DNA of 64,000 bases, taken from an uncultured Bdellovibrionales bacterium. GTDB lineage: Bacteria; Bdellovibrionota; UBA1018; CAIPTA01. This document shows positions 28,760-53,209 of this stretch, piece by piece. How positions within the stretch are numbered: position 1 is the first letter of the stretch; each line of letters starts with the position of its first letter. The stretch covers positions 9,229 to 73,228 of the forward strand of contig CAYQES010000010.1 of the NCBI GenBank assembly GCA_964416595.1. The letters run 5' to 3'. Made by a program: the position numbers and the translations under genes. Below the pieces are notes generated by a model. The model made no database searches, was not told the DNA's origin, and saw nothing but the letters and a program-made list of their open reading frames with translations.

Positions 28760-29002
28760 GTTTACCTCCCACCAAATGAGAGCAAGGAAAATGCCATGGC
28801 AATAGCGGCAAATTGCTCTATTGCCGTTCAATAAATTTTCTCGATGTTTTTATTTTAACAACTACAACTAGAATATATTTATAAAAAACATAAAAATCGA
28901 CGAGTTTATGACTATAAAATAAGCTCACTGTCAAACCTCCAAAGCAAAAAAATATACAATTTTGCACTGTAGAAATGGTGGCCAAACGCTATACTTAGGG
29001 TG

Positions 29003-33163: not shown

Positions 33164-33169
33164 GGTTTC

Positions 33170-34297: not shown

Positions 34298-34424
34298 CTT
34301 AAGATTAAAGTATTACAGAGAAAGGGATTTAGTAAAGGCGGGTAGTAACATAGGCATGCAACGTAGTGGGCGCACCAAGTAGAAGCTTGCCCAAACCCCC
34401 ACTCCCGATTATCTTCTGCCACCC

Positions 34425-35069: not shown

Positions 35070-35155
35070 GAATCTGTAAGAATTTACTCGCTTTCGTTAG
35101 CAGAAATTTCATGACCCTCCATGGTCATATCTTCCACCTTCTTGGAGGGGGGATT

Positions 35156-37681: not shown

Positions 37682-38655
37682 TATAACTCTCCGGCATACT
37701 CTCGATACAACCCACCCATGAGTAAGGCCGCGGATTCATCGCTTCCAGAATCGGCCAGAACCGCCAATCCCAATTCTCTTCCGTTCACATGAAAGGCCAA
37801 GGTGTGGTGATGCACGCTTACTGTATAAGGAGAGCCATCCGGATGACTGGGGCTACCCGTTTCTGGATCCACGGTGGGTCCGCTATAGGTTCCTGTTTTG
37901 CCGCCCACAAATACATTTCTGGGCAAATATTTTTTCCCCCTACTCGCGCCGGTGCGATGGGTATGCATGAGTTTCCACACCACTTCCGCACCAGGGTATC
38001 TTCCTTGGTAGGTATCATGGAGGAAGGCCACCAATTCATCGGCCGTCAATTCATTGCCATGGATGGATCCCCAATAACCTTGAAAGCCCCGCGTGCGGGC
38101 ATAGCCCATCCGCTGCGTGAAGCGATGGATCGTTTCACGGCCCCGATCAGAATCCCCGTCTCCCGCCTGGTTCTGCAATTTTGTCCAAGCTGTATTGGAA
38201 GAAACCACCAACATTTCCGCCATGAGCTGTAGCTGCTCTTGGGAAAAAGCGCCGTTTTGTTTGTCCACCAGGGCGGCGCCCACAAAGATTTTAGAAACCG
38301 AAGCACCAAATTGTTTACGGGAAGGATTGGCGCTGGAATCTAGCAGGCGACCCGAATCCAAATCCATCAAGGCCCATTGCACGCCATGGTTAGGTTGGGT
38401 TTTTGTGGCCTGTAGCAGCGCTAAATAGGCCTGTTTTTCTTGCTCCCGAAAGGGCACACCACTGCCCGTGGTTAACACCAAGGGAGAACCCGAAACCACC
38501 ACCCGCCGCAAATCTTGGCCGGTGGAAAGCCGTAAAAAATGGGGGTCCGTTACTGGACTACTAGAATTTACCGCCCCCCTTCCTGGTTCCGCTCCCACAG
38601 GAGCCGCCGGGGCACAAGCAGACAATACAAGGCACAAAAGCAAAATACGACTCAT
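37681..38655 (-). CDS. Secreted penicillin-binding-fold serine hydrolase (class A beta-lactamase / DD-peptidase-like)
   Basis: Signal/lipoprotein-like N-terminus MSRILLLCLVLSAC. All three fold motifs are present: SxxK (ASVSKIF), SxN (VVSSNTA), KTG (GGKTGT). Confidence 0.72.
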   Translation of the reverse strand: MSRILLLCLVLSACAPAAPVGAEPGRGAVNSSSPVTDPHFLRLSTGQDLRRVVVSGSPLVLTTGSGVPFREQEKQAYLALLQATKTQPNHGVQWALMDLDSGRLLDSSANPSRKQFGASVSKIFVGAALVDKQNGAFSQEQLQLMAEMLVVSSNTAWTKLQNQAGDGDSDRGRETIHRFTQRMGYARTRGFQGYWGSIHGNELTADELVAFLHDTYQGRYPGAEVVWKLMHTHRTGASRGKKYLPRNVFVGGKTGTYSGPTVDPETGSPSHPDGSPYTVSVHHHTLAFHVNGRELGLAVLADSGSDESAALLMGGLYREYAGEL

Positions 38656-38747
38656 AGCAGCTCCTCCTTGAGCGTCTGGAATCTATAAAAGGCGTGATTT
38701 ATTTATGGTAGCTTGTCATCTAGCTGCATTAAAGCCGTTATCTCTGA

Positions 38748-38781
38748 AATTCCTTAATTCATAGCAAATTAATCAGGAATT
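38748..38781. promoter_or_regulatory. Inverted repeat in the divergent promoter region (candidate operator)
   Basis: AATTCCT (38748-38754) and AGGAATT (38775-38781) flank an inner TAATT/AATTA pair. The repeat lies in the 212-bp AT-rich gap between divergent operons. Confidence 0.3.
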
Positions 38782-38798
38782 ATTTCCCGATAATATTC

Positions 38799-38826
38799 TT
38801 GACCAAAACAATCAAATCGATATAGA
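38799..38826 (+). promoter_or_regulatory. Candidate sigma70-type promoter for the 38868-43639 operon
   Basis: TTGACC-16 nt-TATAGA, with the -10 ending 41 nt upstream of the ATG at 38868. Confidence 0.35.
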
Positions 38827-38867
38827 CATGATGCGTTATTTTAATAACTCTCCCATGGGGCTCACGT

Positions 38868-40682
38868 ATGAAAATCATTTTCGCTCTTCTCTCTGTAACT
38901 CTCGTTTCCTTGGCCGCGGCGTTCGCTGCAGGATTCAACATCTCGGACTACAATCAGGCGCTTCCCTCCTGGGGAACCTCTTGGCGGCCCGGCGCTGATG
39001 CCCTGAACGGCTATTACCCCAGCTTCTACACGGGCTTTGCCATGAGAAGCAGCTTCCCCGACCGCATCCACGTGCGCTTAGCCCGCGGGAACCAAACCAG
39101 AGTATCAGTTATCCTCGATGAGCAAACCATCAGCGACTACCTCTTTGATCTCGCCAAACGCCATGAGTTCTACCAAGCCGCCAATGCTGCCCAACTCATC
39201 CGACCCGTAAGTAGCGAAAAGGCCAGCGTTACCCCCCAACTCCAATACTTCAACCAAATCTTAGAAGCCGAAGGCATCCTCTCCTTCGTGGACAGCGCCA
39301 AACGCGGCAACCAATCTGCCGAAACCATTTATCGTAAAAGCCTCGAAACCCTCACCGCCCTAAATCCGGGCCGGGTGTTCTCTCTGCGGATCAATCTGCA
39401 AACAGAATTCTTAAAGTGGAAATCGCAAATGCGCGCCCTCTTGGCTAACGAAAACGATGCCCAAACTTTTTTCAGCAGCAAGCCTGACCAAGCGGTGATC
39501 GCCCTCAACAGTTTATTGTGGGGAAGAATCAACCTAGTAGATGCGCCCTCCAAAGAAATGCTCACGCTATTAGCGAACACTGCCACTCTCGCCAAAAGCG
39601 ATAACAACAACGAGCAATTTATTCTTTCGGCTCTAGCTCTTTTCCAAATGACCACGGGAAATAAATATAAATTCCGCGTATTGGAAAATGGCCAATGGCA
39701 AAATGCCATCCAATGCCAAAACGTAAACCAGTGCTTTCTAGTGTATCCAGAATTCACCACGATTTACCCCACTGGCTCTGTAAAATCTTCCACTAAAGAT
39801 CAGTTCGGAAACACAATTCCCACCTTCGCCACTCCCGGTCTCTGGCGCTTTCTCTCCCGCGGCAGCAGGCACGACGTGGATAATATCCGCGACGAAAGCT
39901 ACTACGGCTGGGCACCGAAAATGGATTACGAAGAAATCGGTAACGGCTTCCACAATCCCGCTGTGCGTTTTGCCGGGATCGGTAGCGAAGTAAAATCTGC
40001 TCTCGGCATCAACGAAACCCACAGCACTTTGTGGAGCGTGATGCGCGGCGGAGTTTCTCACGGTTGCTCTCGCCTATCCTTGGGCCATGTTTGGGAAATG
40101 CGCCATATCTTCCCTGTGGAAAACGAAAAAATGACCCAAGTGTACTTCTTCGGCAATAACCCTCAGGATTTCGACGTTTACGACGTGGACGGTAACGGTA
40201 GCCCTGAAGTGATGGGCGTGGAATATATGATTTCCTACAATGTGAAAGGCTCTAGCGGCCTAGCTCGCCGAGAAGGCGCTGATCTAAAGATTAGCAAAGA
40301 GGATAAACTGAATTTCTACAGTGATCTCTACGGCGCCGAGAACGTGTTCACCCAAGATAGCAGCGGAAATTTCATATTCCACAATCCCTCTGCTTCGATC
40401 CTCTCCTATTTGAATTTCCAGAAAAAGAAAATCACCACCCGCTTGCAAGTGAATGGTGAAATTCCCCTCTGGGAGCAAGCCTACGAGCGGGATAAGGTAC
40501 AGTTCTATCTACCTTTCACCACACAAGGCCTCACTACCGCAGGCAGCTCCCCATTGAGTAAACGTATCGTGCGTTTATTGGGTCGGGTTCGTGGTTGCGC
40601 TCCTACCACCAACAAAAATCTTTGCGGCGAAGCAGCTTTCGATGCGGAAGCACAAAAAATATTGGCTGAAATTGCTCAATAA
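38868..40682 (+). CDS. Secreted protein with C-terminal L,D-transpeptidase (YkuD)-like catalytic motif
   Basis: Signal peptide MKIIFALLSVTLVSLAAAFA. THSTLWSVMRGGVSHGCSRL matches the His...SHGC-R signature. The N-terminal ~380 aa are unrecognised. Confidence 0.45.
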   Translation: MKIIFALLSVTLVSLAAAFAAGFNISDYNQALPSWGTSWRPGADALNGYYPSFYTGFAMRSSFPDRIHVRLARGNQTRVSVILDEQTISDYLFDLAKRHEFYQAANAAQLIRPVSSEKASVTPQLQYFNQILEAEGILSFVDSAKRGNQSAETIYRKSLETLTALNPGRVFSLRINLQTEFLKWKSQMRALLANENDAQTFFSSKPDQAVIALNSLLWGRINLVDAPSKEMLTLLANTATLAKSDNNNEQFILSALALFQMTTGNKYKFRVLENGQWQNAIQCQNVNQCFLVYPEFTTIYPTGSVKSSTKDQFGNTIPTFATPGLWRFLSRGSRHDVDNIRDESYYGWAPKMDYEEIGNGFHNPAVRFAGIGSEVKSALGINETHSTLWSVMRGGVSHGCSRLSLGHVWEMRHIFPVENEKMTQVYFFGNNPQDFDVYDVDGNGSPEVMGVEYMISYNVKGSSGLARREGADLKISKEDKLNFYSDLYGAENVFTQDSSGNFIFHNPSASILSYLNFQKKKITTRLQVNGEIPLWEQAYERDKVQFYLPFTTQGLTTAGSSPLSKRIVRLLGRVRGCAPTTNKNLCGEAAFDAEAQKILAEIAQ

Positions 40683-40691
40683 GAGGATCTT

Positions 40692-42062
40692 ATGAAATAT
40701 TTTCTACTTTTAACCCTACTCTTTAGCACCGCGGCCAAAGCGGATCTAAAAGAAGATTTCGAAGCCGTAAATAAAGAATCCAAGGGCGCCTTTGGCCAAA
40801 ATTATTTGCAAGGCACCTCTTCTCGTACCACCGTGAGCTCCGGAAAATCGCCAAAAAATTTTCTGTTCCAAGCGGCGTATCGCAATGAAAAAGCGCAAAT
40901 CTTGGTGGACACGCACCAGTTTTACTTAGGCAACCTTTTCACCACCAACTACTACCAGTTGATGGGTGAGTATGTGTATGGCGACGTGAATTCCGATCAC
41001 GAAATCGATCACTCAGCGCTTCTAGCCAACAGCCAAGAAGCCATGAAAAAAGCCAGTCTCATCATCAAACACTGGGTGTTGGAAAAGCATTATATCTTCC
41101 ACTTCCCGAACACAAACTTAGCCAAAGGCTTCGCTTACCGCGGAATCGGAGGCTCGGAATTTGAGCGCCCCTATGCGGAACATTTTTTCAATTTCTATTT
41201 ATCTTCCATGAATGATGACTTCCAATATTTACCGGCCTTCCTCTTAGTGAACCAAAGCCCCATCGTGGATTCTTCTTCTTTGGATAAAGCCCGGCTCTTG
41301 ATCTCCGATTCCTACGAATATTTCAAAGCCCGCTTTGGGGCCAACGATGATCGCGTGAAGGCACTATTCAAATTGCGCAACGCCATCCACAATCAGCTCT
41401 CAAAAGCTGTAATTGCCCAAATCGACCAATACTATGTGGATTATCCCTTCTATCTAGAAGAAGGTCACACGTACCTGGGAGTGATCCGCGAGATCTTGGT
41501 GGATTATTTTAGCTTCAGCGCCGATAAAATCAGTAAAGATGCCGCCGCCATTGGCTTAAGCGATCTCCAAGCTGCTGCGGATCAAATCACCACCGAGGGA
41601 GCTATTACGCCCGAAAACCTCCTGGCTCTTTCGCGGGTGGCCGCCCAATGGAAAACGGATATCGGCAGCGATAAAATCGATTTCAAAAATCGCGCCCGCA
41701 CTTTGGCTGTGCTCACGAAAGTTAGCCGCTTCCTCAATAAAGAGTTGGCAGCTTTAGAAAACGCCAAAAATCCTGCAGCTATCGAAGCCGTAGTGAACAC
41801 CATTTACTTGGAAGGTTTTCTGATCAAAGACAACTGGCAGTACTTCAAAGACGAAGTTCCGCTTACCTCTGATTATGCCAGTTTACTTTCTGACATTTTA
41901 GAAATCGCCGGCGGCGGCACTGGCAGCACTCTGCAAGAAGCCTTCAAGGGGGCCTATGAGCAATGGCTCATCGTGGAACCCAAAATGGAGTACTTCCTCG
42001 ATAACACAATTAAATCTTCGTCTCTTAACATGGCCGCGCTAGTGGCAGAAAAAGTTCGTTAA
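40692..42062 (+). CDS. Hypothetical secreted protein
   Basis: 456 aa with signal peptide MKYFLLLTLLFSTAAKA. No recognised motif. It starts 9 nt after the upstream gene. Confidence 0.5.
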   Translation: MKYFLLLTLLFSTAAKADLKEDFEAVNKESKGAFGQNYLQGTSSRTTVSSGKSPKNFLFQAAYRNEKAQILVDTHQFYLGNLFTTNYYQLMGEYVYGDVNSDHEIDHSALLANSQEAMKKASLIIKHWVLEKHYIFHFPNTNLAKGFAYRGIGGSEFERPYAEHFFNFYLSSMNDDFQYLPAFLLVNQSPIVDSSSLDKARLLISDSYEYFKARFGANDDRVKALFKLRNAIHNQLSKAVIAQIDQYYVDYPFYLEEGHTYLGVIREILVDYFSFSADKISKDAAAIGLSDLQAAADQITTEGAITPENLLALSRVAAQWKTDIGSDKIDFKNRARTLAVLTKVSRFLNKELAALENAKNPAAIEAVVNTIYLEGFLIKDNWQYFKDEVPLTSDYASLLSDILEIAGGGTGSTLQEAFKGAYEQWLIVEPKMEYFLDNTIKSSSLNMAALVAEKVR

Positions 42063-42079
42063 CAAAAAAGGTGAATATA

Positions 42080-43639
42080 ATGAAAAAATATCTCTTAGCA
42101 CTGGCACTTTTAGTTTCTTCCTTAGGCGCAAAACAAGCTCTTGCGGGAGCCAAAGTAATGAACCCCGGCGAGGCAAAAGGCCAATTGGTTTTCATTTCCG
42201 ATGAAGATGTGCGCATGGGTTCAGAAAAGTTCAAAAGCCTTTCACCGCTTTCGATTCCCGCATTTGCTGAATTGCCGATGGATATGTCGGTAGTAGCTGG
42301 GGCGATCACGCTAAAACAGCAGAACTTAAACTCCCACGTGCAATTAAAATCCCGCGCCCGCAAAACCCCAAACCTCGATATCTCTGATCTTGAAGGCGGG
42401 ATGCAAAACGAGCTTTTGAAAAACTTTAAGGATGGGGATTGGATCCACCTACTATTGGGTACCGATGGTAGCGTGCAAATCACCGCTTCCAGCGAACAAG
42501 AAGCTTTAAAATTCTACCAAGATAGAAAAACCGTGGAAGTTAAAATCCGCGCTGATTTACAAGCCAATAAAATCTACGAACACGCAGAATTATCTTCCAA
42601 GGATTCTGATAAAGTAGGATCCAAAGCCGCCAACTATGCGGAACTTGCGAAAGCCCTCAACACCCCCGAGCGCACCGTGGTTCGCCCAGGTTACGCCTTG
42701 CCTTTCTATTACTACCAACAGTTCATCGACTCTAATCCAGAGATCAAAGCAGCCATCGAAAAGATGCTCCGGGATCCGCTCATGACCAAAATTTCCAAAG
42801 TGAGCTACCGGGAACAAAAACTCCAAATGATCCAAGCGATGATTTTGAGCGAAGCCAGCGTGATCAGCCAAGAACTAGTGGATAATATGTTAGCCATTTT
42901 GGACACAAAACTCACCAAAGATGGCCACAAGCGGAAAATGAAACTCCGTAGCTCTACCAACGCTGAAGATCTACCAAACTTCAATGGTGCTGGTCTCTAT
43001 ACTTCCGAATCCTATAAGCCAGAAAAAGACGGAGTAGAAAAACCCCACGAGAAAAAAGTAAAAAGCTTAAAAGAAGCTTTGCGCGTGGTATGGGCTTCCG
43101 TTTGGAACGTTCGTGCCTACGAAGAGCGTAATTACTTCCGCATTCCCCATGAAGACGTAAAAATGGGCGTGCAGATCAATCCCTCCTTCAGTAATGAGGG
43201 GGTGGATGGAGTAGTAGTTACAAAAAATATTGCTAATGCCAACGGGCTAGAGGGTGCTGCTGTTTATATCGAGGCCCAGCGCGGAGATAAATATAGCGTG
43301 GCCAATCCTGAGAGCGGAACCCGCCCAGAGCGCATACTCGTGATGGTAGATGCTGCAGATAAACTAAACACTGCCGCTTACCAAATCCATGTATTGCAAA
43401 AATCCAACGTGGCTGACGATATGATCACCGTATTGGATCACGACAATCCCAATCCGATTATGAGTGACGAAAACATCAAAGATCTTGTGTACCAAAGCCT
43501 AAAGGCGGAAGCGCACTTCAAGCCGATCTTCGGCCAGAATAATAATGCTTTTGCTTTGGACATCGAATTCAAGGTGGACAGCGAAGACACGGGCTCGCCG
43601 CAAATATACTTAAAACAAGCTCGCCCCTATATCGACTAA
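42080..43639 (+). CDS. Signal-peptide-bearing PEP-utilising-type enzyme: phosphohistidine swivel domain followed by PPDK_N ATP-grasp domain
   Basis: Start at ATG 42080 (AAGGTG SD 7 nt upstream). Signal peptide MKKYLLALALLVSSLGAKQALA. Swivel pattern VVAGAITLKQQNLNSHVQLKSRARKTPNL. ATP-grasp patterns VGSKAANYAELAK, LRSSTNAEDLPNFNGAGLYTSE, VWASVWNVRAYEER. Confidence 0.7.
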   Translation: MKKYLLALALLVSSLGAKQALAGAKVMNPGEAKGQLVFISDEDVRMGSEKFKSLSPLSIPAFAELPMDMSVVAGAITLKQQNLNSHVQLKSRARKTPNLDISDLEGGMQNELLKNFKDGDWIHLLLGTDGSVQITASSEQEALKFYQDRKTVEVKIRADLQANKIYEHAELSSKDSDKVGSKAANYAELAKALNTPERTVVRPGYALPFYYYQQFIDSNPEIKAAIEKMLRDPLMTKISKVSYREQKLQMIQAMILSEASVISQELVDNMLAILDTKLTKDGHKRKMKLRSSTNAEDLPNFNGAGLYTSESYKPEKDGVEKPHEKKVKSLKEALRVVWASVWNVRAYEERNYFRIPHEDVKMGVQINPSFSNEGVDGVVVTKNIANANGLEGAAVYIEAQRGDKYSVANPESGTRPERILVMVDAADKLNTAAYQIHVLQKSNVADDMITVLDHDNPNPIMSDENIKDLVYQSLKAEAHFKPIFGQNNNAFALDIEFKVDSEDTGSPQIYLKQARPYID

Positions 43640-45561
43640 GGCTCAAAGGAATAAATTCCTTCCACTTGCAGCCGATTTTTTAGGTGGCCGGCGGAAAAGC
43701 CCTGATCGTGCACGATTTCCTGGCTATAAGCCCTGGCCCGCTCCTTCTTACCCAAGTAGTGATTTCCCAGGGTTAAAACGGGAAGTAAACCAAAACGCCC
43801 TGGGCTACCCTTGGGCACTCTTTTAGCTAAAGACTCAAAAAAATCCACAATCGCCTGGCGGGCGGGTTTTCCTTGGAGCGGAAAAAGGAAAAGCTGAATG
43901 CCTTCGAATTCCCGCAGTAAATACCCCTCAGGAAGCATTGCGGCCTTAAGTTTTTGCCCATCCCAAGAATTATACAACACAATTGCGAGCCACTCCGGCT
44001 CCCAATCAGACTGAAAAAATCGCGGAAGCCACGTGAGCATATCGGAATTTTCAAATTCTTCGGAAGGAAAGTCCGCTTGCCCGCCCGCTTTCACGTGCTT
44101 TAGTTTCATATAAAATTGCTCGCCAATCAGCCAAGGGCAAAACTTATTGCCTGAGGCTAAGCAGAAATTTAAAATCGCAACTTTTTTCCCGTCAAATTCA
44201 TTAATGGCTGAAAAGAACGCACGCGTATTGTCCCGCGAGGGCGGATTAGGAATATAGTTTTTGTAAGCATTTGGGTAAACTAAAGATAAAATAGCGGTCA
44301 CAGAAAAAAGCGGAACCCACACCGGCCAGCGCCCCAAGCCACTCATTTTCCAACGCTCTTCCACAAATTGAATCCCATGGGCCAAAAAGAAAAATGATAG
44401 GGGCCAAACGGCCAGGAGATAATAAGCTTGGAGCGGCCACTCAATATAACCTTTGAAATAAGGAATCAAAAAAGCCAGAAAAAGAAAGGCAGTGAGACCA
44501 AACAGCAATAGTCCATAAAAAGAGTGAGATAAGGTAGGTTTTTCTTTTTTCTTAAAAAAACAGGAAAAAAGAAAACAAAGTAGAAGCGCCAGTAACAATG
44601 GCAAAAGTGGCGTGATGTAAACAGAAAGATAATAAGAAAAATTAGCCGAGGTTACTTCCGCCCATAAAAATTCCAATGTGAACGGTTTTGTGCGCGAGAT
44701 CCGCGGTGTGGAAATGCGCAAAATGTAAAGCTGAACCGGAGTAAAGGCGAGCACTCCTATGCTTACGGCAAACACAATCCGCAACCGATTTTTCCATAGA
44801 GAAACAGGCGCCACAGCCAAAGCCACACAAGCGCCACCGATCACCACTACCGGTTGCATGCCAATGGCCAACAGCGAACACAAACAAATGGCCGCTAGAT
44901 ACACTCCCTCTCCCCAACTCATGGCTCGTTTTAGAAGTGGCACAAGAAAACTGCAGAAAATAATGATGGTGAACATGCCGATGGAAAGGGGGCGTGCTTC
45001 ATAGCCATATTGGGTAACAATTCCATGCAGTGAATAAAACAACACACCCAAAACCGCTATTACCCAGTGGCCCGTGATTCTACGCAACTGCACAGCCAAG
45101 AGGCCCGCTGCTGCGCTAGAAAAAAGGCAGGCACTGAAACGGCCCGTGAGTTCCGTAAGACCAAACAGCCGAACGATACTGTTTATTAAAATAAATTCAA
45201 ACGGAGGCTGGTGCTGGCTCGCGGCAGCGGCCACAGGCATTTGCCGAATGGCAGTGGATACTTGGTAATCCTCATCAAGCCAAATGGGAATCTGGTGCAC
45301 TAGAGAAATGCGAAACACTAACATCAGGAAGAAAAAAAACAGGAACGCTTGGATCTCATTCCACTCCTTGGTGCTAAGTTTCCAGCGGAAATATTTAGTT
45401 TCAGTGAAAAGAAGAGCTAAAAAAAATACGAAAATAATTCCGGAAAAATAAATTTCTATTTCGGGAGAAAAAAGCTCTTTGCCATTAAAAAAAGAAAAAA
45501 TCGCCCCGGCTGATCCCCAACCAAACAAAAAGAGGGTCAAAAAACGCTCTAAAGCTGCCAT
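43636..45561 (-). CDS. Large polytopic membrane protein, GT-C-fold (ArnT/PMT-like) glycosyltransferase candidate
   Basis: Start taken at MAALERFL (45561). It has more than 12 TM helices, an acidic first-loop motif IWLDEDYQ, and a soluble C-terminal domain. Confidence 0.5.
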   Translation of the reverse strand: MAALERFLTLFLFGWGSAGAIFSFFNGKELFSPEIEIYFSGIIFVFFLALLFTETKYFRWKLSTKEWNEIQAFLFFFFLMLVFRISLVHQIPIWLDEDYQVSTAIRQMPVAAAASQHQPPFEFILINSIVRLFGLTELTGRFSACLFSSAAAGLLAVQLRRITGHWVIAVLGVLFYSLHGIVTQYGYEARPLSIGMFTIIIFCSFLVPLLKRAMSWGEGVYLAAICLCSLLAIGMQPVVVIGGACVALAVAPVSLWKNRLRIVFAVSIGVLAFTPVQLYILRISTPRISRTKPFTLEFLWAEVTSANFSYYLSVYITPLLPLLLALLLCFLFSCFFKKKEKPTLSHSFYGLLLFGLTAFLFLAFLIPYFKGYIEWPLQAYYLLAVWPLSFFFLAHGIQFVEERWKMSGLGRWPVWVPLFSVTAILSLVYPNAYKNYIPNPPSRDNTRAFFSAINEFDGKKVAILNFCLASGNKFCPWLIGEQFYMKLKHVKAGGQADFPSEEFENSDMLTWLPRFFQSDWEPEWLAIVLYNSWDGQKLKAAMLPEGYLLREFEGIQLFLFPLQGKPARQAIVDFFESLAKRVPKGSPGRFGLLPVLTLGNHYLGKKERARAYSQEIVHDQGFSAGHLKNRLQVEGIYSFEP

Positions 45562-45565
45562 AGCT

Positions 45566-47386
45566 CTACTTCCCCTTAAATTTCGCGATGGAATCCAAGT
45601 GCTGCTCTTTAGCTTCGGAAAGTTGCAGCCAACGCTCTTCCAATTCCTGCATATGCACACCCAAGGAACTTAAACGCAGCACCCAATCACTAACGGGAGA
45701 TTCAGCCTCCACAATTTTCTGGTTCAAAGTTTCACTTTCCTCTTGCACGCGCTGCATCTCTTGTTCACATTCCAAAAGTTGTTTTTCACAGAGGCGATAT
45801 TCGCGCTCTAGCTTTTTTTTAGCGTCCTTCCAGTTTTCTGGCTTTTCAAGCACAATCTCTGGGGAGCATTTTTCTTTTGTTACCACTGGTAACTCTTCCG
45901 CAACCAGTTGCTGCACACTCCATACATATTCTTCATAGGTGCCCGGGTAGAGCCGCACTTGCCCGCGAGCCACCTCCAGGATTTTTGTGCCCACTCGTTT
46001 GATAAAACCCCGGTCGTGGCTCACCACCACAACAGTGCCTTCATAGGCGGCCAGAGCATTCGTGAGGGCCTCAACGGTTTGAAAATCTAAGTGGTTGGTG
46101 GGCTCATCGAGCACCAAACAAGGCGCCTTTTGTAATAGCACCCGGCCGAGAGCCACCCGGGATTTTTCCCCCCCGGAAAGAACAGAAATGAGCTTTTTTA
46201 CGTCGTCTCCCGAAAATAAAAGAGAACCGGCCAAATCCAGGATTTCTTGGGGCCTCACATCCCTATGGGCCGCCCGCTCTAGGGATCTTAGTACAGTATC
46301 CGTTGGCTCCAAGGCTTCCACCACATGTTGAGCAAAAAATGCCAACTCCACGCTCAAGCCAAATTCTACTTTGCCATGCAGCGGAGCCAAGGCGCCCGAG
46401 AGGCCTTTTAGCAAAGTAGATTTACCCGCTCCATTCATTCCTACCACGGCCACATGATCGCCCCGCTGCACTTGCAGATTCACATTACGCAAAATGATAT
46501 TTTCGCCGTAACCAAACTGGGCTTGGTCCATGGCTAAGGTAAGTTTTCCAGTTTTGGCGGGAGCCGGAATAGCGATCCGCGTAGTCACAGGCAATGGTTT
46601 GATTTCAATTTCTTCCATGCGTGCCAAGCTTTTTAAACGGGATTGGGCCTGGCGAGCTTTAGTGGCCGAAGCGCCAAAGCGGGCCACAAAATCCAAGATA
46701 TCTTTTCGCTTAGCAGCTTGGCCGGCAGCTCGGGCTTGCAATTGAGCGCGGAGCAAAGTTTTTTGCTCGAAGTAATCGTCAATATTTCCGTTGAACTTCG
46801 TGACCTCTTGATTCTCCACCTCCAAGATGTGATCAGTGGTGCGCCTCAAGAATTCTCGATCATGGGAGATCAGCAAAAAGGCCCCCTCAAAACCTTGAAG
46901 AAAGCGCTCCAACACTAGAGTGGTTTCCAAGTCCAAATAGTTTGTGGGCTCATCCAAAAGCATAAGATTGGGCGCTTGCCCAAGTAAACCCAATAACTTA
47001 AGGCGCATGCGATAGCCGCCGCTCAAAGAGAGCACGGGTTTTTCCAAAATTTCTTCGTTGAGCTGCAAAATTCTTCCTTGGGATTTTAATTCCCAGAGTG
47101 GAATTTTTGTTACCCTAGCCAAATAACTATTACCGCTTTCTCCCGGCTCCCAAATCTCATGCTGGGAAAGATAGCCTAAAGATAATTTCCGAGAGCGCAC
47201 CACGACGCCTTCATCCAAAGATTCTTCTTCCGTAAGAATGCGAAAGAGCGTGGATTTGCCAGCACCATTGGGGCCTATTACGCCCACATGTTCCCCCGCA
47301 TTGAGGGAAAAAGTGGCGTCCGTAAAAAGCGTGCGGGAGCCATAGGATTTTGTGCCGTTTTGGAGTTGTAAGAGATTTTCGGCCAT
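45566..47386 (-). CDS. ABC-F family ATPase (two ABC domains, no TM domain, C-terminal coiled coil)
   Basis: Walker A GPNGAGKST and GMNGAGKST, signatures LSGGYRMR and LSGGEKSR. Start taken at MAENLLQL. Confidence 0.9.
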   Translation of the reverse strand: MAENLLQLQNGTKSYGSRTLFTDATFSLNAGEHVGVIGPNGAGKSTLFRILTEEESLDEGVVVRSRKLSLGYLSQHEIWEPGESGNSYLARVTKIPLWELKSQGRILQLNEEILEKPVLSLSGGYRMRLKLLGLLGQAPNLMLLDEPTNYLDLETTLVLERFLQGFEGAFLLISHDREFLRRTTDHILEVENQEVTKFNGNIDDYFEQKTLLRAQLQARAAGQAAKRKDILDFVARFGASATKARQAQSRLKSLARMEEIEIKPLPVTTRIAIPAPAKTGKLTLAMDQAQFGYGENIILRNVNLQVQRGDHVAVVGMNGAGKSTLLKGLSGALAPLHGKVEFGLSVELAFFAQHVVEALEPTDTVLRSLERAAHRDVRPQEILDLAGSLLFSGDDVKKLISVLSGGEKSRVALGRVLLQKAPCLVLDEPTNHLDFQTVEALTNALAAYEGTVVVVSHDRGFIKRVGTKILEVARGQVRLYPGTYEEYVWSVQQLVAEELPVVTKEKCSPEIVLEKPENWKDAKKKLEREYRLCEKQLLECEQEMQRVQEESETLNQKIVEAESPVSDWVLRLSSLGVHMQELEERWLQLSEAKEQHLDSIAKFKGK

Positions 47387-47391
47387 GGGTT

Positions 47392-48027
47392 TTAAGATTC
47401 CCGTAAACGCGTGCAATATTCCTGTAACACACTTGGGAATTCGCCAGTGTCTTTTATCACCCGGTGGGCAAAGTGTTTGCTGGGCTCCACGAATTTATCG
47501 TGCATAGGTTTTACTTGAGCAAGGAATTGCTGCTTTACTCCCTCTGCTGTTCGGCCCCGATCCTTCACATCCCGCTCGAGGCGTCGTTGGAAGCGCAAGG
47601 CTTCCGGAGTGTCGAAAAATACCAGTTCATCAAAGAGAGCCCGTAAAGGTGCCCAGTGGAAAATCAAAATGCCATCTACTACAATTACAGGTTTAGGTTC
47701 CATCTTTAGCACTTTTGCCAAACGAGAATGGGTCACAAAATCATAAATGGGTATATCTGTAGCTCGGCCATTTTTCAGCTGAAACAAACGTTCCGTGAGC
47801 AAAGGAAAATCGATCGCGTCCGGATGGTCAAAGTTCACGGAGCCCCCGTCAAAATCAAAACGCTTGGATTGATCGATATAGAAATTATCCTGGTATAGAA
47901 TTTCACAACGGGCAACGCCCAACTCCGCATGCAAAGCACGGGCGAAAAAAGTTTTGCCTGAGCCACTGCCGCCGGCTACGCCGAGGATAAAAGGTTTATT
48001 TTGTTTGGTAGAGCCGGTCACCGGCAT
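47392..48027 (-). CDS. udk: Uridine kinase
   Basis: P-loop ILGVAGGSGSGKTFFA, then YQDNFY, FDHPDAIDF, IPIYDF. The annotated start overlaps upp by 32 nt. Confidence 0.88.
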   Translation of the reverse strand: MPVTGSTKQNKPFILGVAGGSGSGKTFFARALHAELGVARCEILYQDNFYIDQSKRFDFDGGSVNFDHPDAIDFPLLTERLFQLKNGRATDIPIYDFVTHSRLAKVLKMEPKPVIVVDGILIFHWAPLRALFDELVFFDTPEALRFQRRLERDVKDRGRTAEGVKQQFLAQVKPMHDKFVEPSKHFAHRVIKDTGEFPSVLQEYCTRLRES

Positions 48028-48628
48028 CTCCCAAACCGGGGATAAGATAACCGGCTTCGGTCATTTCTTTTTCCACCTGCAGCGTGAAAATTTCCACATC
48101 GGGGTGAAAATGATGAATCCGTTCCACGGCCAATTGGCTCACTAAAATCGTGAGCACCTTAATCTCTTTCACTTCGTAGCTCTTTAAACGATCAATTGCG
48201 GCGATCATAGTATCAGCAGTGGCTACGAGCGGATCACAAAGGATCGCAAGCTTGCCTTTAATATCCGCGGGCATTTTAAAATAATATTCTACCGTATTGT
48301 GGATGAAGCGATCCCGATAGATGCCGATGAAACCGGCGGACGCAAATGGAATCATGGAGAGCACTGGATCCAACATGCCGTTGCCTGCGCGCATGATGGA
48401 AACGATTACGGGGGGATTTTTAATCCTTTCCACAGTGGTAGGCGCAATCGGCGTTTCGATAGCAACGGAGCTCATCTCTTTCCAATCCCGCATCACTTCG
48501 TGGGCCAAAATACGGCTGATTTCTTTGGTGAGCTCGCGAAATTCCGAGGAAGAAGTGTTTTTATCCCGCAAATAGCCAAGCTTATGCCGTAGCAGAGGAT
48601 GATCGAGGACAATGACTTTACCTTTCAT
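47996..48628 (-). CDS. upp: Uracil phosphoribosyltransferase
   Basis: HPLLRHKLGYLRD, PRPP-binding LCDPLVATADTM, C-terminal YLIPGLGDAGDRLYQTK. Confidence 0.92.
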   Translation of the reverse strand: MKGKVIVLDHPLLRHKLGYLRDKNTSSSEFRELTKEISRILAHEVMRDWKEMSSVAIETPIAPTTVERIKNPPVIVSIMRAGNGMLDPVLSMIPFASAGFIGIYRDRFIHNTVEYYFKMPADIKGKLAILCDPLVATADTMIAAIDRLKSYEVKEIKVLTILVSQLAVERIHHFHPDVEIFTLQVEKEMTEAGYLIPGLGDAGDRLYQTK

Positions 48629-48637
48629 ACCGCTCCT

Positions 48638-49855
48638 TTAAAAAACTGTTCCATCGCTTTGTATGCGTAAGGGGGGGGCTCCATCCGCCCGTTTTTTCTG
48701 GGCTAAAAAACGCCCAGCCCACCAGGTGCCACCTTCTAGCACTTTAGCGAGAGGCAATTGCGCAGGGCTCATACCTAATTTTTTTTGCACACCCATTCCG
48801 ATTTGATCTAGTAAATGCACCGTGAGTGCTCGCCACTCGATAATGAGTTCCGATCCAGGCTCCCAACTTTTTTGCGCATTGGCCGGATCTTGCAAGGAAA
48901 TAAGACCAGAATCCAGCAGCAAACCACCATTACGATATTCCGCCAAGCCCGTGAGTTCTTCCACTCCTACCACCCGGCAACCCGCTTCTTGAATTGGCTC
49001 GATCAGAGAATAGGTGAGCCACTGGGAGAGTTTATGGAACGGAACAAAGGATTCAAAGGTGCCTGGGGATCCAAGCTTAGAATGGACCCACAGATCGCCC
49101 ATATTTTTCCCCTCAAACACCACTCGACCCGGCCAAATAGAACCTAAGCCATCGAGCACGGCCCGCAAAATTCCTGGGGCAGGGATTTGCGTGCCATATT
49201 TTTCCATGAGGTAATCCAAAATATTGCCCGGGCGCCCGTTTTTAAAAATTGTTTTGTTTTCTAAAGCTCGAGCCAAATTATTCAACAGCCCCAAACGGCC
49301 CTCTAAACCCACAAGAGGATTTTTTTCGCTCACCTGAAAGGCCGAAGAAAGTTTGGATAAAGAAAGGTTTCGTAAACCTTCTTTATCCGCACGGAGCGAA
49401 CGGCCATCGCCAGCCAGGGCCCCGGATAAAAAAAGATACAAACTTGCTACACCTAAACCCTCAGATCGCCCGTAAGAGCTTTGCGTTTCTTTTTCAAAAA
49501 ATTTCCACTGAGTGCCAGCGCCTGCGTCCAATAGCACTGAAGGAATCACGAGGTCTAATTTTGCCCGGGCACTCTCTTTGGCTTCCAAAGATTGTAAGCG
49601 AGAATCCAATTCCCGCACCCGATCCACGCCCCCCACCCGAAAATGCCCCCAACGGGAATGAAAGGGGATCTTTAAATCTGGGTAATTCTGGTGAATTACC
49701 TCGATCACATAAGTGATCGTGGGAGCCAATTGCTCCGGATGAAATACAAAAAAACCTTTCTCATCTTCCGTGAATTGAAAAACTTTCTCGGCCCGTTGCC
49801 GGATGGCCGCGGGTGAAAAAAGATAATCAACGGAACTTTCTGGTTTATTCGTCAA
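48638..49855 (-). CDS. DUF1688 family protein (URC4-like, uracil catabolism)
   Basis: 405 aa with an N-terminal AIRQRAEKVF.. segment and the characteristic IPFHSRWGHFRVGG motif. It sits between the URC1-like gene and upp. Confidence 0.7.
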   Translation of the reverse strand: MTNKPESSVDYLFSPAAIRQRAEKVFQFTEDEKGFFVFHPEQLAPTITYVIEVIHQNYPDLKIPFHSRWGHFRVGGVDRVRELDSRLQSLEAKESARAKLDLVIPSVLLDAGAGTQWKFFEKETQSSYGRSEGLGVASLYLFLSGALAGDGRSLRADKEGLRNLSLSKLSSAFQVSEKNPLVGLEGRLGLLNNLARALENKTIFKNGRPGNILDYLMEKYGTQIPAPGILRAVLDGLGSIWPGRVVFEGKNMGDLWVHSKLGSPGTFESFVPFHKLSQWLTYSLIEPIQEAGCRVVGVEELTGLAEYRNGGLLLDSGLISLQDPANAQKSWEPGSELIIEWRALTVHLLDQIGMGVQKKLGMSPAQLPLAKVLEGGTWWAGRFLAQKKRADGAPPLRIQSDGTVF

Positions 49856-51113
49856 TTTTTCGCCCCTTCACCTTTTTCAAGTCAGCCTTTGTTTTCTTAG
49901 GCTCCTTGTTGAAATAACCCGCAGCTTTTTTTGCCTCCATTTCCACGTGGGCATCCTTCGGAATCAACTCATCGGGAATGGAAATCCGATTTTCCACTTG
50001 GATCCCGCTATTCACGATCGCATCGTATTTCATATTGCTCATGGAATGGAGATTGTGGATTTTCTTGATGCCAAAAAAGTGCAAACAATCGGGCATGAAT
50101 TCTTGGAAGCGGGCGTCTTCCGTGCCAGCCACGCATTCCGTGCGATGGAAATAGGTGGCCGCAGTATCACCACCCTCTTGGCGTTTGCGAGCATTGTACA
50201 CCAGGAATTTTGTTACCTCCCCTAGAGCACGGCCTTCTTTTCGGTAATAAGCAATGATTCCTACACCACCCCGTTGGGCCGTACGGGCCGCATCTTCAAT
50301 GCCGTACACAAGGTAAGGCCGGCAAGTGCAAATATCGGATCCAAACACATCAGAACCATTGCATTCATCATGCACCCTGCAGGTGAGCTCTACTTTTGGA
50401 TTAGCTAGAGCTTGAGGATCTCCGAAAATATAAACCGTGGTACTACCGATAGGTGGAAGCCAAACTTTTAAATCGGGGCGCGTGATGAATTCGGGATACA
50501 TACCCCCCGTTTCTTGAAAGATAATCCGGCGCAACTCCCCCTCTTCCACTTGCAGGCGCTCGGCAATGCCGGGCAAATACCAAACGGGCTCGATCGCCAC
50601 TTTGGTTACACGAATGTCTTTATTTTCCCGGATAATTTTTTTGTCTATTTTTAAACGGCCCGCATCGATGGCTTGGGAAATTTCTGGGATCTGCAAATGG
50701 GCCTGGGTAACAGCCACCGTGGGGCGGATATCGTAACCTTTTTCAAAGAGGGGTTTAAAATGAATCTGAGGATCTAAACCCCAAGGATCCATGGAAACTA
50801 TTTTTGTTTTATCAAACCATTGATCGTGGGGACCAATCTTCGTAGGGCTCTGGGTGTTATGCAAATCTGGCTTATGCAGTGAGGGAAATTTTCCGCTCGC
50901 AATCGAGAGCGCCCGATACACCGTATAACTTCCGCTATGGGCGCCGATCGCATTACGAGCCTTGGAGTTTGTGAGCGAAGCCACCACTGGCCCCCGCTTC
51001 AACGGATCCCGGGCTCCCCATTGGATAGGGAGAGTCTCCTTATATTTTAAATTGGAGTGAGTGGCTAAGATCACATGATTGGATCGTTTCATTTCCTGCT
51101 TTTCCTGAGGCAT
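49845..51113 (-). CDS. GTP cyclohydrolase II-family protein with long N-terminal extension (URC1-like)
   Basis: RVHDECNGSDVFGSDICTCRPYL (C-x10-C-x-C zinc site) and YYRKEGRALGEVTKFLVYN. A ~230-aa N-domain (NAIGAHSGSYTVYRAL) lacks the RibB RENEGD motif. Confidence 0.75.
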   Translation of the reverse strand: MPQEKQEMKRSNHVILATHSNLKYKETLPIQWGARDPLKRGPVVASLTNSKARNAIGAHSGSYTVYRALSIASGKFPSLHKPDLHNTQSPTKIGPHDQWFDKTKIVSMDPWGLDPQIHFKPLFEKGYDIRPTVAVTQAHLQIPEISQAIDAGRLKIDKKIIRENKDIRVTKVAIEPVWYLPGIAERLQVEEGELRRIIFQETGGMYPEFITRPDLKVWLPPIGSTTVYIFGDPQALANPKVELTCRVHDECNGSDVFGSDICTCRPYLVYGIEDAARTAQRGGVGIIAYYRKEGRALGEVTKFLVYNARKRQEGGDTAATYFHRTECVAGTEDARFQEFMPDCLHFFGIKKIHNLHSMSNMKYDAIVNSGIQVENRISIPDELIPKDAHVEMEAKKAAGYFNKEPKKTKADLKKVKGRKIDE

Positions 51114-51126
51114 AGAACTCTAAACT

Positions 51127-52587
51127 TTACGACATCCAATTGGAGTCGTTTTGTTTCTCCCATTTTACAGTCACTTTTTTTACATCTGACCAAAAATCCA
51201 AACTGTGGTGACCCGTAATATCACCATGGCCAAACTTGGAAGCATTGATACCACCAAAAGAAAAGGGCTCTCGGGGCACCGGTACACCTACATTCACGCC
51301 CACCATGCCTGCGGTAGCTTCTTTTGCCACTCTCTCAGCCAATGGGCCGCTGGAAGTAAAAACGCTGCAAGCATTGCCATAATCCACACTCCGCTCAATC
51401 TCGAGGGCTTCCGAAAGATCCTTACAGCGCACAATGCTGAGGATCGGGCCAAATAATTCCACAATGGCAGCCTCAGATCCTGGTTGCACTTGATCTAAAA
51501 TCGTGGGGCCTAACCAATTGCCATTTTCCATCCCCTTAGGCGCCTGGGCTTTACGGCCATCGAGCAAAATTTTCGCACCCGCTTTTTCCGCGCGGCCAAT
51601 GGCTTCACATAAAAAATCCCGTTGGGTTTTGGTGATGAGCGCGCCCATTTCCGAGCCGAGTTTTAAAGAAGAGGCCCGCTCCACAATTTTCTGGATGTGC
51701 TCGTCTACTTTTCCCACAGCCAAAAGCACAGAAGCGGCCATACAACGCTGGCCCGCGCAACCCGTGAAGGAATCGGAAATGCCTGCGCCACTTAAATCCT
51801 GATTGGCATCAGGCAAGAGGATAATATGATTTTTTGCGCCCCCTAGTGCCAGCACTCTTTTTCCCAGCTGCGTGCCACGCTGGTACACAAGCTTTGCTAC
51901 TTTAGTAGAACCAACAAAACCAATAGCCTTTACAAGTGGGTGATCGATGATTGCATTTACGGTGGTAGAATCACCGTGCAGCACCGTGAAAACCCCAGCA
52001 GGTAAACCCGCTTCTTGAAGCGCATCGGCGATTTTCCGGGCCGTGAGCGGAGTTTTATCCGAAGGTTTCCACACATACGAATTGCCTAGCACTAATGCGA
52101 TCGGGATTGTCCAGAGCGGCACCATAGCAGGAAAATTAAACGGCGTGATATTGGCTACCACACCCAACGGCTCTCGCCGAAACTCACAACTGACCCCCCG
52201 GGAAACTTCGAGCTTACCGCCAAGATCCAGGTTCTGTATGGAGAGCGCAAACTCCAAAACTTCGATTCCTTTTCGTAAACCGCCTCTAGCTTCCTCGAGA
52301 GATTTTCCACATTCAGAGCTCTTTAAGGCAGCGATGGTTTCGAATTCCCTTAGTAAAATTTGGCGAAATTGGTAGAGCACTTGGCTACGCTCTTTCACAG
52401 GTGCTTGACCCCAAGATTTTTGAGCAACGGCAGCGGCGCGAATGGCTTTGTCGATTTGCTCTAGGGAAGGAAAAGAAAAAGTACCAAGCACGCGGCCATC
52501 ATAGGGTGAGCGCACCTCATGGGAAGAGCGGCTGCCCTTTTCCCATTTACCTTGGATAAAATTGTCGCAAACAATCGCTTGATTCAT
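51127..52587 (-). CDS. mmsA: CoA-acylating (methyl)malonate-semialdehyde dehydrogenase
   Basis: 486-aa ALDH fold with catalytic Cys context FTGCAGQRCMA and NITPFNFPAMVPLW. There is no conserved general-base Glu motif, as is typical of MSDH. Confidence 0.85.
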   Translation of the reverse strand: MNQAIVCDNFIQGKWEKGSRSSHEVRSPYDGRVLGTFSFPSLEQIDKAIRAAAVAQKSWGQAPVKERSQVLYQFRQILLREFETIAALKSSECGKSLEEARGGLRKGIEVLEFALSIQNLDLGGKLEVSRGVSCEFRREPLGVVANITPFNFPAMVPLWTIPIALVLGNSYVWKPSDKTPLTARKIADALQEAGLPAGVFTVLHGDSTTVNAIIDHPLVKAIGFVGSTKVAKLVYQRGTQLGKRVLALGGAKNHIILLPDANQDLSGAGISDSFTGCAGQRCMAASVLLAVGKVDEHIQKIVERASSLKLGSEMGALITKTQRDFLCEAIGRAEKAGAKILLDGRKAQAPKGMENGNWLGPTILDQVQPGSEAAIVELFGPILSIVRCKDLSEALEIERSVDYGNACSVFTSSGPLAERVAKEATAGMVGVNVGVPVPREPFSFGGINASKFGHGDITGHHSLDFWSDVKKVTVKWEKQNDSNWMS

Positions 52588-52636
52588 GTTTTAACCTCGA
52601 AGAGTAAACGGTAAAACACTTAAGAGTGCTTTACAA

Positions 52637-53209
52637 TCAGCGGTATTGGTCCAAAATTTTTTGCTTTTCTTTTTCAAATTCCTGCTGGGATAGCGTTCCC
52701 CGATCATAGAGCGCTTGTAAACGCTCTAGATCTGCAAATTTGCCTGCAGGACCAGCAGAAAATACCTGCTTCACCATTTCTACCCATGCGTCCACCACGG
52801 GCACATTTTCTCGCCCGTACACCACCACAGTTTCTGCCACCAAATCATGGAAAGCTTGTTTCTTTGCTGTAAACAGCGCTAACAAATGGGGCACACAGCC
52901 TAAAGCTGAGGAAATCAATTTCATCACCGCTCGCACCAAGGCCGCACGGAAAGTAATCCGTTCCCCAGCTTCGTTCCTCACCTGTATTCCCAGGAGCTTT
53001 TTACCAATGGTAGCCTGCAACCTGGAAGATTCCAGAAAAGGCACATAAAAAAACCAAATCAAAAGGCCCCCAACCACAGGAAATACACCGCCAAAAAAAC
53101 AAGCCGGTACTAATAAAATCAACATATCTAGTAGCACTGCAAAGAAGCGGGAAGAAAACGAAGCGTATTGAGTGTTGTTCAAAATAACCTCCCTAAAGAT
53201 TGGAGGCAA
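52637..53209 (-). CDS. RDD family membrane protein with C-terminal SHOCT-like motif
   Basis: ASFSSRFFAVLLDMLIL.. RDD-type TM core. The C-terminus DLERLQALYDRGTLSQQEFEKEKQKIL resembles SHOCT. Confidence 0.65.
   Translation of the reverse strand: MPPIFREVILNNTQYASFSSRFFAVLLDMLILLVPACFFGGVFPVVGGLLIWFFYVPFLESSRLQATIGKKLLGIQVRNEAGERITFRAALVRAVMKLISSALGCVPHLLALFTAKKQAFHDLVAETVVVYGRENVPVVDAWVEMVKQVFSAGPAGKFADLERLQALYDRGTLSQQEFEKEKQKILDQYR

Follow-up and report, generated by a model that had tools for sequence, protein, structure and literature searches.

A probable URC-type pyrimidine catabolic operon with a linked malonate-semialdehyde dehydrogenase gene in a Bdellovibrionota-like bacterium, and a remote resemblance of its DUF1688 protein to Qng1

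Of the four pyrimidine degradation pathways described so far, URC is the one least understood, and its ring-opening enzyme was solved only in 2021. In Lachancea kluyveri, URC1 and URC6 take uracil to ribosylurea and a C3 product that ends as 3-hydroxypropionate, URC4 takes ribosylurea to urea, and URC3,5 degrade the urea, with uracil serving as sole nitrogen source (PMC7530994). In Schizosaccharomyces pombe, urg1 (GTP cyclohydrolase II-like), urg2 (uracil phosphoribosyltransferase-like) and urg3 (DUF1688) are clustered and induced by uracil (PMC2174524). Since 2008 the literature has described URC1 and URC4 as conserved in bacteria (PMC3869809). Here we describe a five-gene block, mmsA-urcA-urc4-upp-udk, in a 64-kb stretch of contig CAYQES010000010.1 from an uncultured Bdellovibrionales bacterium; that whole stretch is called the window, and positions are counted from its first nucleotide. 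In our judgment the block quite probably forms a self-contained operon for URC-type pyrimidine catabolism in a Bdellovibrionota-like bacterium.

The block is made up of five consecutive minus-strand open reading frames (ORFs). The first, mmsA (51127-52587; 486 residues), encodes a coenzyme A (CoA)-acylating (methyl)malonate-semialdehyde dehydrogenase. It is followed by a URC1-like gene, urcA, for a probable uridine triphosphate (UTP) cyclohydrolase (49845-51113; 422 residues, or 415 from Met8 at 51092), a DUF1688 gene of the URC4/urg3 family (48638-49855; 405 residues, TTG start), upp for uracil phosphoribosyltransferase, the URC6 function (47996-48628; 210 residues), and udk for uridine/cytidine kinase, the URK1 function (47392-48027; 211 residues). 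An earlier, sequence-only reading of this DNA had placed the five ORFs at these coordinates with spacings of +13, -11, +9 and -32 nucleotides (nt), and recomputation from the ORF coordinates reproduces its figures. Both peptides quoted in that reading were found as well, RVHDECNGSDVFGSDICTCRPYL at residues 246-268 of the URC1-like protein and IPFHSRWGHFRVGG at residues 63-76 of URC4, and Pfam and NCBIfam bear out all five of its family assignments. For upp the matches are PF14681 (UPRTase, 9.8e-62), NF001097 (231 bits) and TIGR01091 (214 bits), the latter two above cutoff; for udk they are PF00485 (1.8e-36) and NF004018 (211.9 bits, cutoff 180). Both genes pass equivalog cutoffs, so that the families of URC6 and URK1 are represented.

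The junctions are tight throughout. The TTG start of the DUF1688 gene overlaps the stop of urcA by 11 nt, and Shine-Dalgarno-like elements appear in the junction sequences ahead of mmsA (GAGG, 9 nt 5' of the ATG), URC4 and upp (a strong AAGGAG). Two start codons have alternatives. The public gene call makes the URC1-like protein 415 residues long, with Met8 (51092) as its start; an AGGA is better placed ahead of that codon, whose use would widen the gap to mmsA from 13 to 34 nt. For udk, a GTG at 48021 would shorten the overlap with upp from 32 to 26 nt. The G+C fraction of the block, 0.48-0.49, is that of its surroundings.

The URC1-like protein had been read as a GTP cyclohydrolase II-family protein without a RibB part, and its Pfam domains confirm this: GTP_CH_N (PF12471) matches residues 12-201 with 1.5e-80, GTP_cyclohydro2 (PF00925) matches residues 229-377 with 7.3e-13, and no DHBP-synthase (RibB) domain appears in the scan. 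The protein scores 715 bits against NF005536, and falls below the RibA models (55 against 148 bits for NF001591, 42.3 against 205.85 for TIGR00505) and the RibBA models (35-44 bits against cutoffs of 486-764). In these profile comparisons the product of 49845-51113 does not group with true RibA, which favours the URC reading, and by its sequence it is clearly to be taken as something other than the riboflavin enzyme. No second GTP cyclohydrolase II-like sequence is detectable in the 64-kb window.

The closest structures are 7EJ3 and 7EEV in the Protein Data Bank (PDB), matched at E about 1e-161 (8.6e-162) across both domains (residues 12-421 against 15-422), while Escherichia coli RibA is matched only at 6e-7. 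Of 410 residues aligned with the UTP cyclohydrolase, 59.5% are identical; the share is 51% for the N-terminal domain and 69% for the catalytic one. Foldseek gives the titles 'Structure of UTP cyclohydrolase' for 7EEV (released 2021-07-28) and 'UTP cyclohydrolase' for 7EJ3 (released 2022-09-21); the enzyme appears as Zhang et al., ACS Catal 2021;11:8895, in the reference list of a 2025 paper, which for the URC pathway also cites Andersen et al. The zinc-ligand residues Cys251, Cys262 and Cys264 and the EGR motif of the URC1-like protein align with those of E. coli RibA (2BZ0), and all are invariant among 28 homologues. The structure model of the protein is poor (predicted local distance difference test score, pLDDT, 55.9), probably because of its shallow alignment (81-89% identity), and the equivalence to UTP cyclohydrolase holds at the level of sequence. 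A view of URC1 chemistry as unresolved is nonetheless out of date, as a bacterial homologue about 60% identical over its full length has been crystallised (7EEV in 2021, 7EJ3 in 2022).

The same homology revises the substrate. The earlier proposal had the ring of uridine monophosphate (UMP) opened; because a close homologue was crystallised as 'UTP cyclohydrolase', a name that itself points to UTP, the ring-opening substrate is probably UTP and not UMP. With UTP as substrate, UMP and nucleoside-diphosphate kinases would be needed, neither of which is in the cluster. The 2021 enzyme is said to yield ribosylurea 5'-phosphate and a C3 aldehyde. The same products, together with release of pyrophosphate, are expected by analogy with GTP cyclohydrolase II.

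Public labels for this family differ from that assignment. NCBI and JGI uniformly call members of the URC1/UTP cyclohydrolase family 'GTP cyclohydrolase II', and NF005536 is an 'equivalog' under that name. On thousands of URC1-type proteins the label is likely a systematic misannotation, one that would lead metabolic reconstructions to assign a riboflavin step to genomes in error.

A contig scan with one protein gave 7 close loci, and a wider survey was drawn from plasmid records and a metagenome scan; the survey set holds 80 metagenome loci retrieved with a diverse DUF1688 alignment, and adjacency was counted among assessable loci only. URC1 stands directly upstream of URC4 in 55 of 64 loci (7 of 7 close relatives, 48 of 57 others) and upp directly downstream of URC4 in 50 of 62 (10 of 10 and 40 of 52). 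The outer genes give lower counts: mmsA lies upstream of URC1 in 9 of 47 loci (5 of 5 close relatives, 4 of 42 others), and udk follows upp in 11 of 55 (8 of 8 and 3 of 47). The widely conserved core is the triad URC1-URC4-upp; mmsA and udk are lineage-specific extensions, found mainly in Bdellovibrionota-type loci.

The closest loci come from Bdellovibrionales and Bdellovibrio metagenome-assembled genomes (MAGs), with homologues labelled Bdellovibrionota, Pseudobdellovibrio and Bacteriovoracia. The order mmsA-URC1-URC4-upp(-udk) is kept in Bdellovibrionota-type MAGs, including long contigs whose flanks are wholly different, and its persistence there argues that the block is a functional unit. 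Adjacency of mmsA and URC1, on the same strand and 13-34 nt apart, extends to distant Bdellovibrionales loci in which URC4 identity has fallen to 46-49%. Many independent contigs of Bdellovibrionota type, with different flanks, carry the five genes in this order and at similar distances, so the arrangement is no chance run.

Outside this lineage, Leptolyngbya, Pseudoroseomonas, Azospirillum, Gordonia and Cupriavidus also have the triad in this order, which thereby spans Bdellovibrionota, Cyanobacteria, Alpha- and Betaproteobacteria and Actinomycetota. Its neighbours elsewhere include cytosine deaminase (10 loci), RutR-like regulators and BMP-type nucleoside ATP-binding cassette (ABC) transporters, and their recurrence argues that the triad belongs to pyrimidine catabolism. 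The records for Pseudoroseomonas, Azospirillum and Gordonia already carry the NCBI annotation 'URC4/urg3 family protein'; in the four for Cupriavidus no annotated feature lies under the URC4 match. The idea that this locus is an unusual source of soluble URC1 and URC4 orthologues does not hold, as their presence in bacteria is long stated, NCBI already names the family, and homologues number in the thousands. In the searchable literature, no paper was found describing a bacterial URC operon with mmsA.

Single loci of the survey show further variation. Cytosine deaminase, matched far above cutoff by NF005759 or NF005748, is encoded at loci L009, L011, L035, L036, L038, L056, L060, L077, L079 and L084, and in Cupriavidus and at two further loci the gene after upp encodes a RutR-like TetR regulator. 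At L034, L035, L036 and L038 a 360-residue protein with a class III adenylate/guanylate cyclase domain (PF00211, 2.7e-19) is encoded immediately upstream of URC4, and at L035 (2908-3987), L036 and L038 it lies between URC1 and URC4; a nucleotide cyclase beside a UTP-consuming enzyme is a curious pairing. In one Bdellovibrionales MAG (L007, 10001-10939) the URC4 match is split into residues 4-181 and 322-405 with the middle missing, which could reflect a deletion, a masked stretch or an assembly problem. Locus L037 has a rearranged triad, in which upp precedes URC4 and URC1 is encoded on the other strand.

The mmsA product matches Pfam Aldedh at 1.1e-124 and passes TIGR01722 (MMSDH), and all ten of its top matches in the PDB, at E 2.5e-105 to 1.8e-95, are to (methyl)malonate-semialdehyde dehydrogenases. 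It carries an Arg281-Cys282 pair, with Cys282 as the catalytic cysteine, in the motif QRCMA, and Arg138 in RREPLGVV, ahead of PLGVV; all three align with the same residues of PDB 9Q0D. The meaning of the two arginines, carboxylate binding included, reportedly comes from work on the Bacillus subtilis malonate-semialdehyde dehydrogenase. The proposed linkage of a CoA-acylating malonate-semialdehyde dehydrogenase to a URC-type pyrimidine catabolic cluster is therefore borne out by family models, PDB matches and conserved adjacency. Because its operon linkage is conserved, mmsA lends genetic support to malonate semialdehyde as the C3 product of the URC pathway, with some bacteria sending that product to acetyl-CoA and not to 3-hydroxypropionate.

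The protein encoded at 48638-49855 matches PF07958 (DUF1688) at 3.3e-142, and its homologues are named 'URC4/urg3 family protein' by NCBI, in agreement with its proposed identity as URC4. DUF1688 is a family of about 2,500 sequence clusters at 50% identity. Among ten longer or lower-identity representatives only bacterial names occur where a name is given (five are nameless), and presumed orthology to fungal URC1 and URC4 rests on shared Pfam architecture, NCBI naming and the literature. An AlphaFold2 model of URC4 built with 30 homologues reached a mean pLDDT of 89.8 and a predicted template modelling score of 0.88. Searched against the PDB with Foldseek, it gave as its sole significant matches 11 chains of Qng1/QNG1 (DUF2419), at E 2.5e-9 to 1.8e-7 and probability 1.0, with template modelling scores of 0.54-0.64 on the query and 0.67-0.79 on the target and an identity of 14-17%; the next-best fold has E 0.29. 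The predicted fold is accordingly of the two-lobe, helix-hairpin-helix glycosylase type. A Pfam scan of 60 diverse DUF1688 proteins points the same way, in that Q_salvage (PF10343) is weakly matched in 35 of the 60 (best 6.9e-8) and no other Pfam family recurs more than twice among them. The URC4 of the window matches Q_salvage over residues 294-361 at E 0.027.

Qng1 is a metal-independent N-glycosylase of helix-hairpin-helix fold that converts queuosine-5'-monophosphate to queuine and ribose-5-phosphate; it has an invariant lysine (K199) and aspartate (D231), and its C-terminal tail places a free carboxylate in the active site, such that a C-terminal tag inactivates the enzyme (PMC9881137). 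In DUF1688, D254 and D315 are invariant, K275 is nearly invariant (at least 90% of diverse members), a glycine-rich LTGLxEYRNGG segment lies between K275 and D315, and the extreme C-terminus, SDGTVF, is invariant, nearly all of the 150 best representatives aligning through to the last residue. The structure model and the Q_salvage matches support URC4 as a putative N-glycosidase releasing urea from ribosylurea or its 5'-phosphate, and K275, D315 and the free C-terminus are, by analogy with Qng1, candidates for catalytic roles. A Qng1-type fold would fit URC4 because the genetically inferred step, ribosylurea to urea, needs a nucleotide N-glycosylase, and a 5'-phosphorylated substrate would follow naturally from a cyclohydrolase II-type reaction on UTP.

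Taken together, the earlier reading stands in part: the URC-type cluster and its link to the dehydrogenase are supported, whereas UMP as substrate, unresolved URC1 chemistry and the unusualness of the cluster are not. The route set out here is one that we infer in every substrate-product assignment, in the co-transcription of the genes and in its physiological purpose. By family, Udk would phosphorylate uridine (and cytidine), and Upp would join uracil and phosphoribosyl pyrophosphate (PRPP) to give UMP, which a housekeeping UMP kinase and a nucleoside-diphosphate kinase, encoded outside the cluster, would raise to UTP. UrcA would then open the uracil ring hydrolytically at its zinc site and remove the C4-C5-C6 part, yielding ribosylurea 5'-phosphate and malonate semialdehyde; if it acts as GTP cyclohydrolase II does, it would also release pyrophosphate. 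URC4 would cleave the N-glycosidic bond of ribosylurea or its 5'-phosphate to give urea and ribose or ribose-5-phosphate, the latter re-entering PRPP synthesis as a recycled carrier. MmsA, for which the conserved linkage suggests the substrate, would convert malonate semialdehyde, CoA and NAD+ to acetyl-CoA and CO2. On balance the carbon of the pyrimidine ring would reach acetyl-CoA, and urea would be excreted or degraded by genes elsewhere.

Several observations weigh against this reading or parts of it. The locus is present in DNA metagenome runs only, and no RNA run contains its sequence. A promoter scan of the region performed at chance level and identified no operon promoter, terminator-like matches in the region are likewise at chance (15 found, 14.2 expected from shuffles), an Rfam search of the whole window returned no RNA element, and the last 120 nt upstream of nine related loci show no evident common motif on visual inspection, made with neither an alignment nor a motif search. 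A nitrogen-assimilation role is without local support, as no urease or urea amidolyase was seen among the scanned ORFs of the window or within 10 kb of the block in relatives. The products assigned to UTP cyclohydrolase come from yeast genetics and from analogy with GTP cyclohydrolase II. The margin by which mmsA passes TIGR01722 is narrow (456.8 bits against a cutoff of 448.5), and mmsA is absent beside URC1 in 38 of 47 assessable loci; being absent from most URC clusters, it is tied to the pathway by one broad lineage. At 14.5 bits, under the Q_salvage gathering score of 25, the URC4 of the window is a remote relative and not a member of that family. A single-sequence PDB search with URC4 found nothing, and DUF1688 profiles from full-length and C-terminal alignments gave no Qng1 match among PDB sequences; since those searches yielded no Qng1 alignment, the equation of D315 and K275 with D231 and K199 of Qng1 is tentative.

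The purpose of the pathway is where an alternative fares best. As in yeast, the cluster might serve mainly to obtain nitrogen, with urease or urea amidolyase encoded elsewhere in the genome, and not be a carbon and energy route. We regard this as rather unlikely. The URC genes of L. kluyveri do support growth on uracil as sole nitrogen source through the urea amidolyase URC3,5, and the visible part of the present genome is 64 kb. Among the window's ORFs of at least 150 residues (five overlapped or shadow ORFs lay outside the scan) no urease, urea carboxylase, allophanate hydrolase or urea amidolyase was found, so that the earlier claim of no urea-degrading genes in the window holds for the non-overlapped ORFs of that length; two relatives on long contigs likewise carry no urea-degrading gene within 10 kb of the block. 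The coupling to acetyl-CoA formation also points to carbon use. Since urea-degrading genes are lacking nearby and the C3 unit is coupled to acetyl-CoA, a carbon and energy role may be at least as likely as nitrogen scavenging in a predator flooded with prey nucleotides, a suggestion we offer as speculation.

The step taken by URC4 admits a second alternative, which we judge unlikely: the protein would not be a urea-releasing N-glycosidase and would act at some other step, for example on a ureido-acrylate-type intermediate, or would use a nucleoside rather than a nucleotide. Its similarity to Qng1, at 14-17% identity, is remote enough to leave room for this, and in the searchable literature no paper was found that assays any DUF1688 protein. 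Against it, the fold search gave significant matches to one family only, of N-glycosylases, which the Q_salvage profile matches back, and the yeast pathway description puts URC4 at the conversion of ribosylurea to urea. The two proposals combined, that URC4 is a Qng1-like N-glycosylase acting on ribosylurea-5'-phosphate and that the Bdellovibrionota operon burns pyrimidine to acetyl-CoA, recycles ribose phosphate and discards urea, are put forward tentatively, at somewhat less than even confidence. If true, the pathway, regarded until now as nitrogen-scavenging, would have a version directed to carbon and energy, one that suits predators digesting prey nucleic acids.

It is improbable, in our estimation, that the URC core works with mmsA as a mere neighbour, serving valine, beta-alanine or inositol catabolism, while the C3 unit is handled elsewhere, for example by reduction to 3-hydroxypropionate, as in yeast. 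MMSDH-family enzymes have several physiological roles, and this account would sit well with the marginal TIGR01722 score and with the 38 of 47 assessable loci that lack mmsA beside URC1. It sits badly with the same-strand adjacency of the two genes in all five assessable close relatives and in distant Bdellovibrionales loci with different flanks, and the scan of ORFs of at least 150 residues in the window turned up no reductase of the short-chain dehydrogenase/reductase (URC8) type. That the block is simply a upp/udk salvage operon beside a riboflavin-type GTP cyclohydrolase II, an unrelated aldehyde dehydrogenase and an unknown protein, with no ring degradation, we consider very improbable: upp and udk are classical salvage genes and public annotation of the URC1-like protein still reads 'GTP cyclohydrolase II', but that protein fails the RibA and RibBA models (55 against 148 and 42 against 206 bits), passes NF005536 at 715 bits, has the URC1-specific GTP_CH_N domain and 60% identity to a crystallised UTP cyclohydrolase, and keeps its order with DUF1688 and upp across phyla.

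The genes on either side of the probable catabolic operon are not conserved beside it. Downstream on the same strand lies an ABC-F family ATPase of the ribosome-associated type (45566-47416, minus strand; two ABC_tran domains and ABC_tran_Xtn; NF000355, 389.8 bits), which abuts udk, its likely ATG at 47386 lying 5 nt past the udk stop, or, from a TTG at 47416, overlaps it by 25 nt. Related loci do not have it beside the block; here it is possibly co-transcribed with the five genes and probably outside the pathway. Upstream, an RDD-family gene on the same strand (52637-53209), separated from mmsA by a 49-nt spacer and not conserved beside the block, could also be co-transcribed with it. The spacer holds a weak hairpin on the minus strand (52611-52634), a terminator-like match that may be the terminator of the RDD-family gene. 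No URC2-type regulator lies near the block.

A four-gene nucleoside ABC uptake system of the BMP/PnrA type is encoded elsewhere in the window, at 8336-12747 on the minus strand, with a Bmp binding protein (11704-12747), a double ABC ATPase (10212-11717) and two permeases (9187-10215 and 8336-9229). The same transporter type directly adjoins the URC triad in Azospirillum, and that of the window may supply substrates to the pathway. Among other genes of the window, a minus-strand ORF at 28334-28831 encodes a protein with a Host_attach / baeRF family 12 domain (PF10116, PF18856), Host_attach being associated with Bdellovibrio host-interaction loci; its presence agrees with a Bdellovibrio-like origin. 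An oxidative-stress trio at 2-1622, also on the minus strand, consists of a Dps/ferritin-like protein, a CMD (AhpD-like) protein and an AhpC/TSA peroxiredoxin. The interval 32477-45660 is rich in ORFs that have no Pfam match (32477-33163, 34425-37681, 38868-42062 and 43636-45660), the last encoding a hydrophobic protein of 674 residues; beside these ORFs are genes for a radical SAM/SPASM enzyme (33170-34297), a protein of the beta-lactamase family and one with a PPDK_N domain, and the stretch could be a peptide-modification or cell-envelope locus.

Set beside the described systems, the locus shares with L. kluyveri URC and S. pombe urg the same core families, a GTP_CH_N GTP cyclohydrolase II-like protein, DUF1688 and uracil phosphoribosyltransferase, together with uridine kinase, and it is clustered as in S. 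pombe. It differs from the yeast systems in being a bacterial operon with overlapping genes, in having a CoA-acylating malonate-semialdehyde dehydrogenase in place of the URC8 reductase that leads to 3-hydroxypropionate, and in lacking a urea amidolyase or URC2-type regulator nearby. The URC1-like protein resembles the bacterial UTP cyclohydrolase UrcA (7EEV/7EJ3) in full-length identity (about 60%), two-domain layout and zinc cysteine triad, in a different organism. With RibA and RibBA it has in common the fold, three zinc cysteines and EGR motif of the C-terminal domain, and it departs from them in scoring far under their cutoffs, in its extra N-terminal domain of 200 residues and in having no RibB domain.

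Two other degradation pathways meet this one at the C3 unit. The reductive Pyd pathway (beta-alanine transaminase, MmsA/IolA) and the Rut pathway (RutE/YdfG reductases) share malonate semialdehyde as C3 intermediate. As in the reductive route, the same dehydrogenase family would make acetyl-CoA here; unlike in Pyd and Rut systems, the gene stands in an operon with URC1 and URC4 and not with dihydropyrimidinase, beta-ureidopropionase or Rut genes. Beyond these pathways, DUF1688 is like Qng1 in the only significant structural match of its model, in recurrent Q_salvage profile matches, and in an invariant aspartate, a nearly invariant lysine and a strictly conserved C-terminal end; it is unlike Qng1 in falling below the family threshold (14.5 against 25 bits), in its 14-17% identity, in being about 80 residues longer, and in a predicted leaving group that is urea rather than queuine.

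The locus offers a specific and cheaply testable hypothesis for URC4, namely that it is an N-glycosidase of Qng1 type in which K275, D315 and the free C-terminus are the candidate residues, and a concrete, testable route from uridine or uracil to acetyl-CoA, urea and ribose-5-phosphate. What is already known is the bacterial URC core, abundant, annotated in public databases, and with a cyclohydrolase structurally characterised from a bacterium. What is distinctive is the five-gene version of Bdellovibrionota type, with a dedicated malonate-semialdehyde dehydrogenase and udk and without urea-degrading partners nearby. What appears to be new is the resemblance of URC4 to Qng1, seen in a predicted fold and in sequence profiles.

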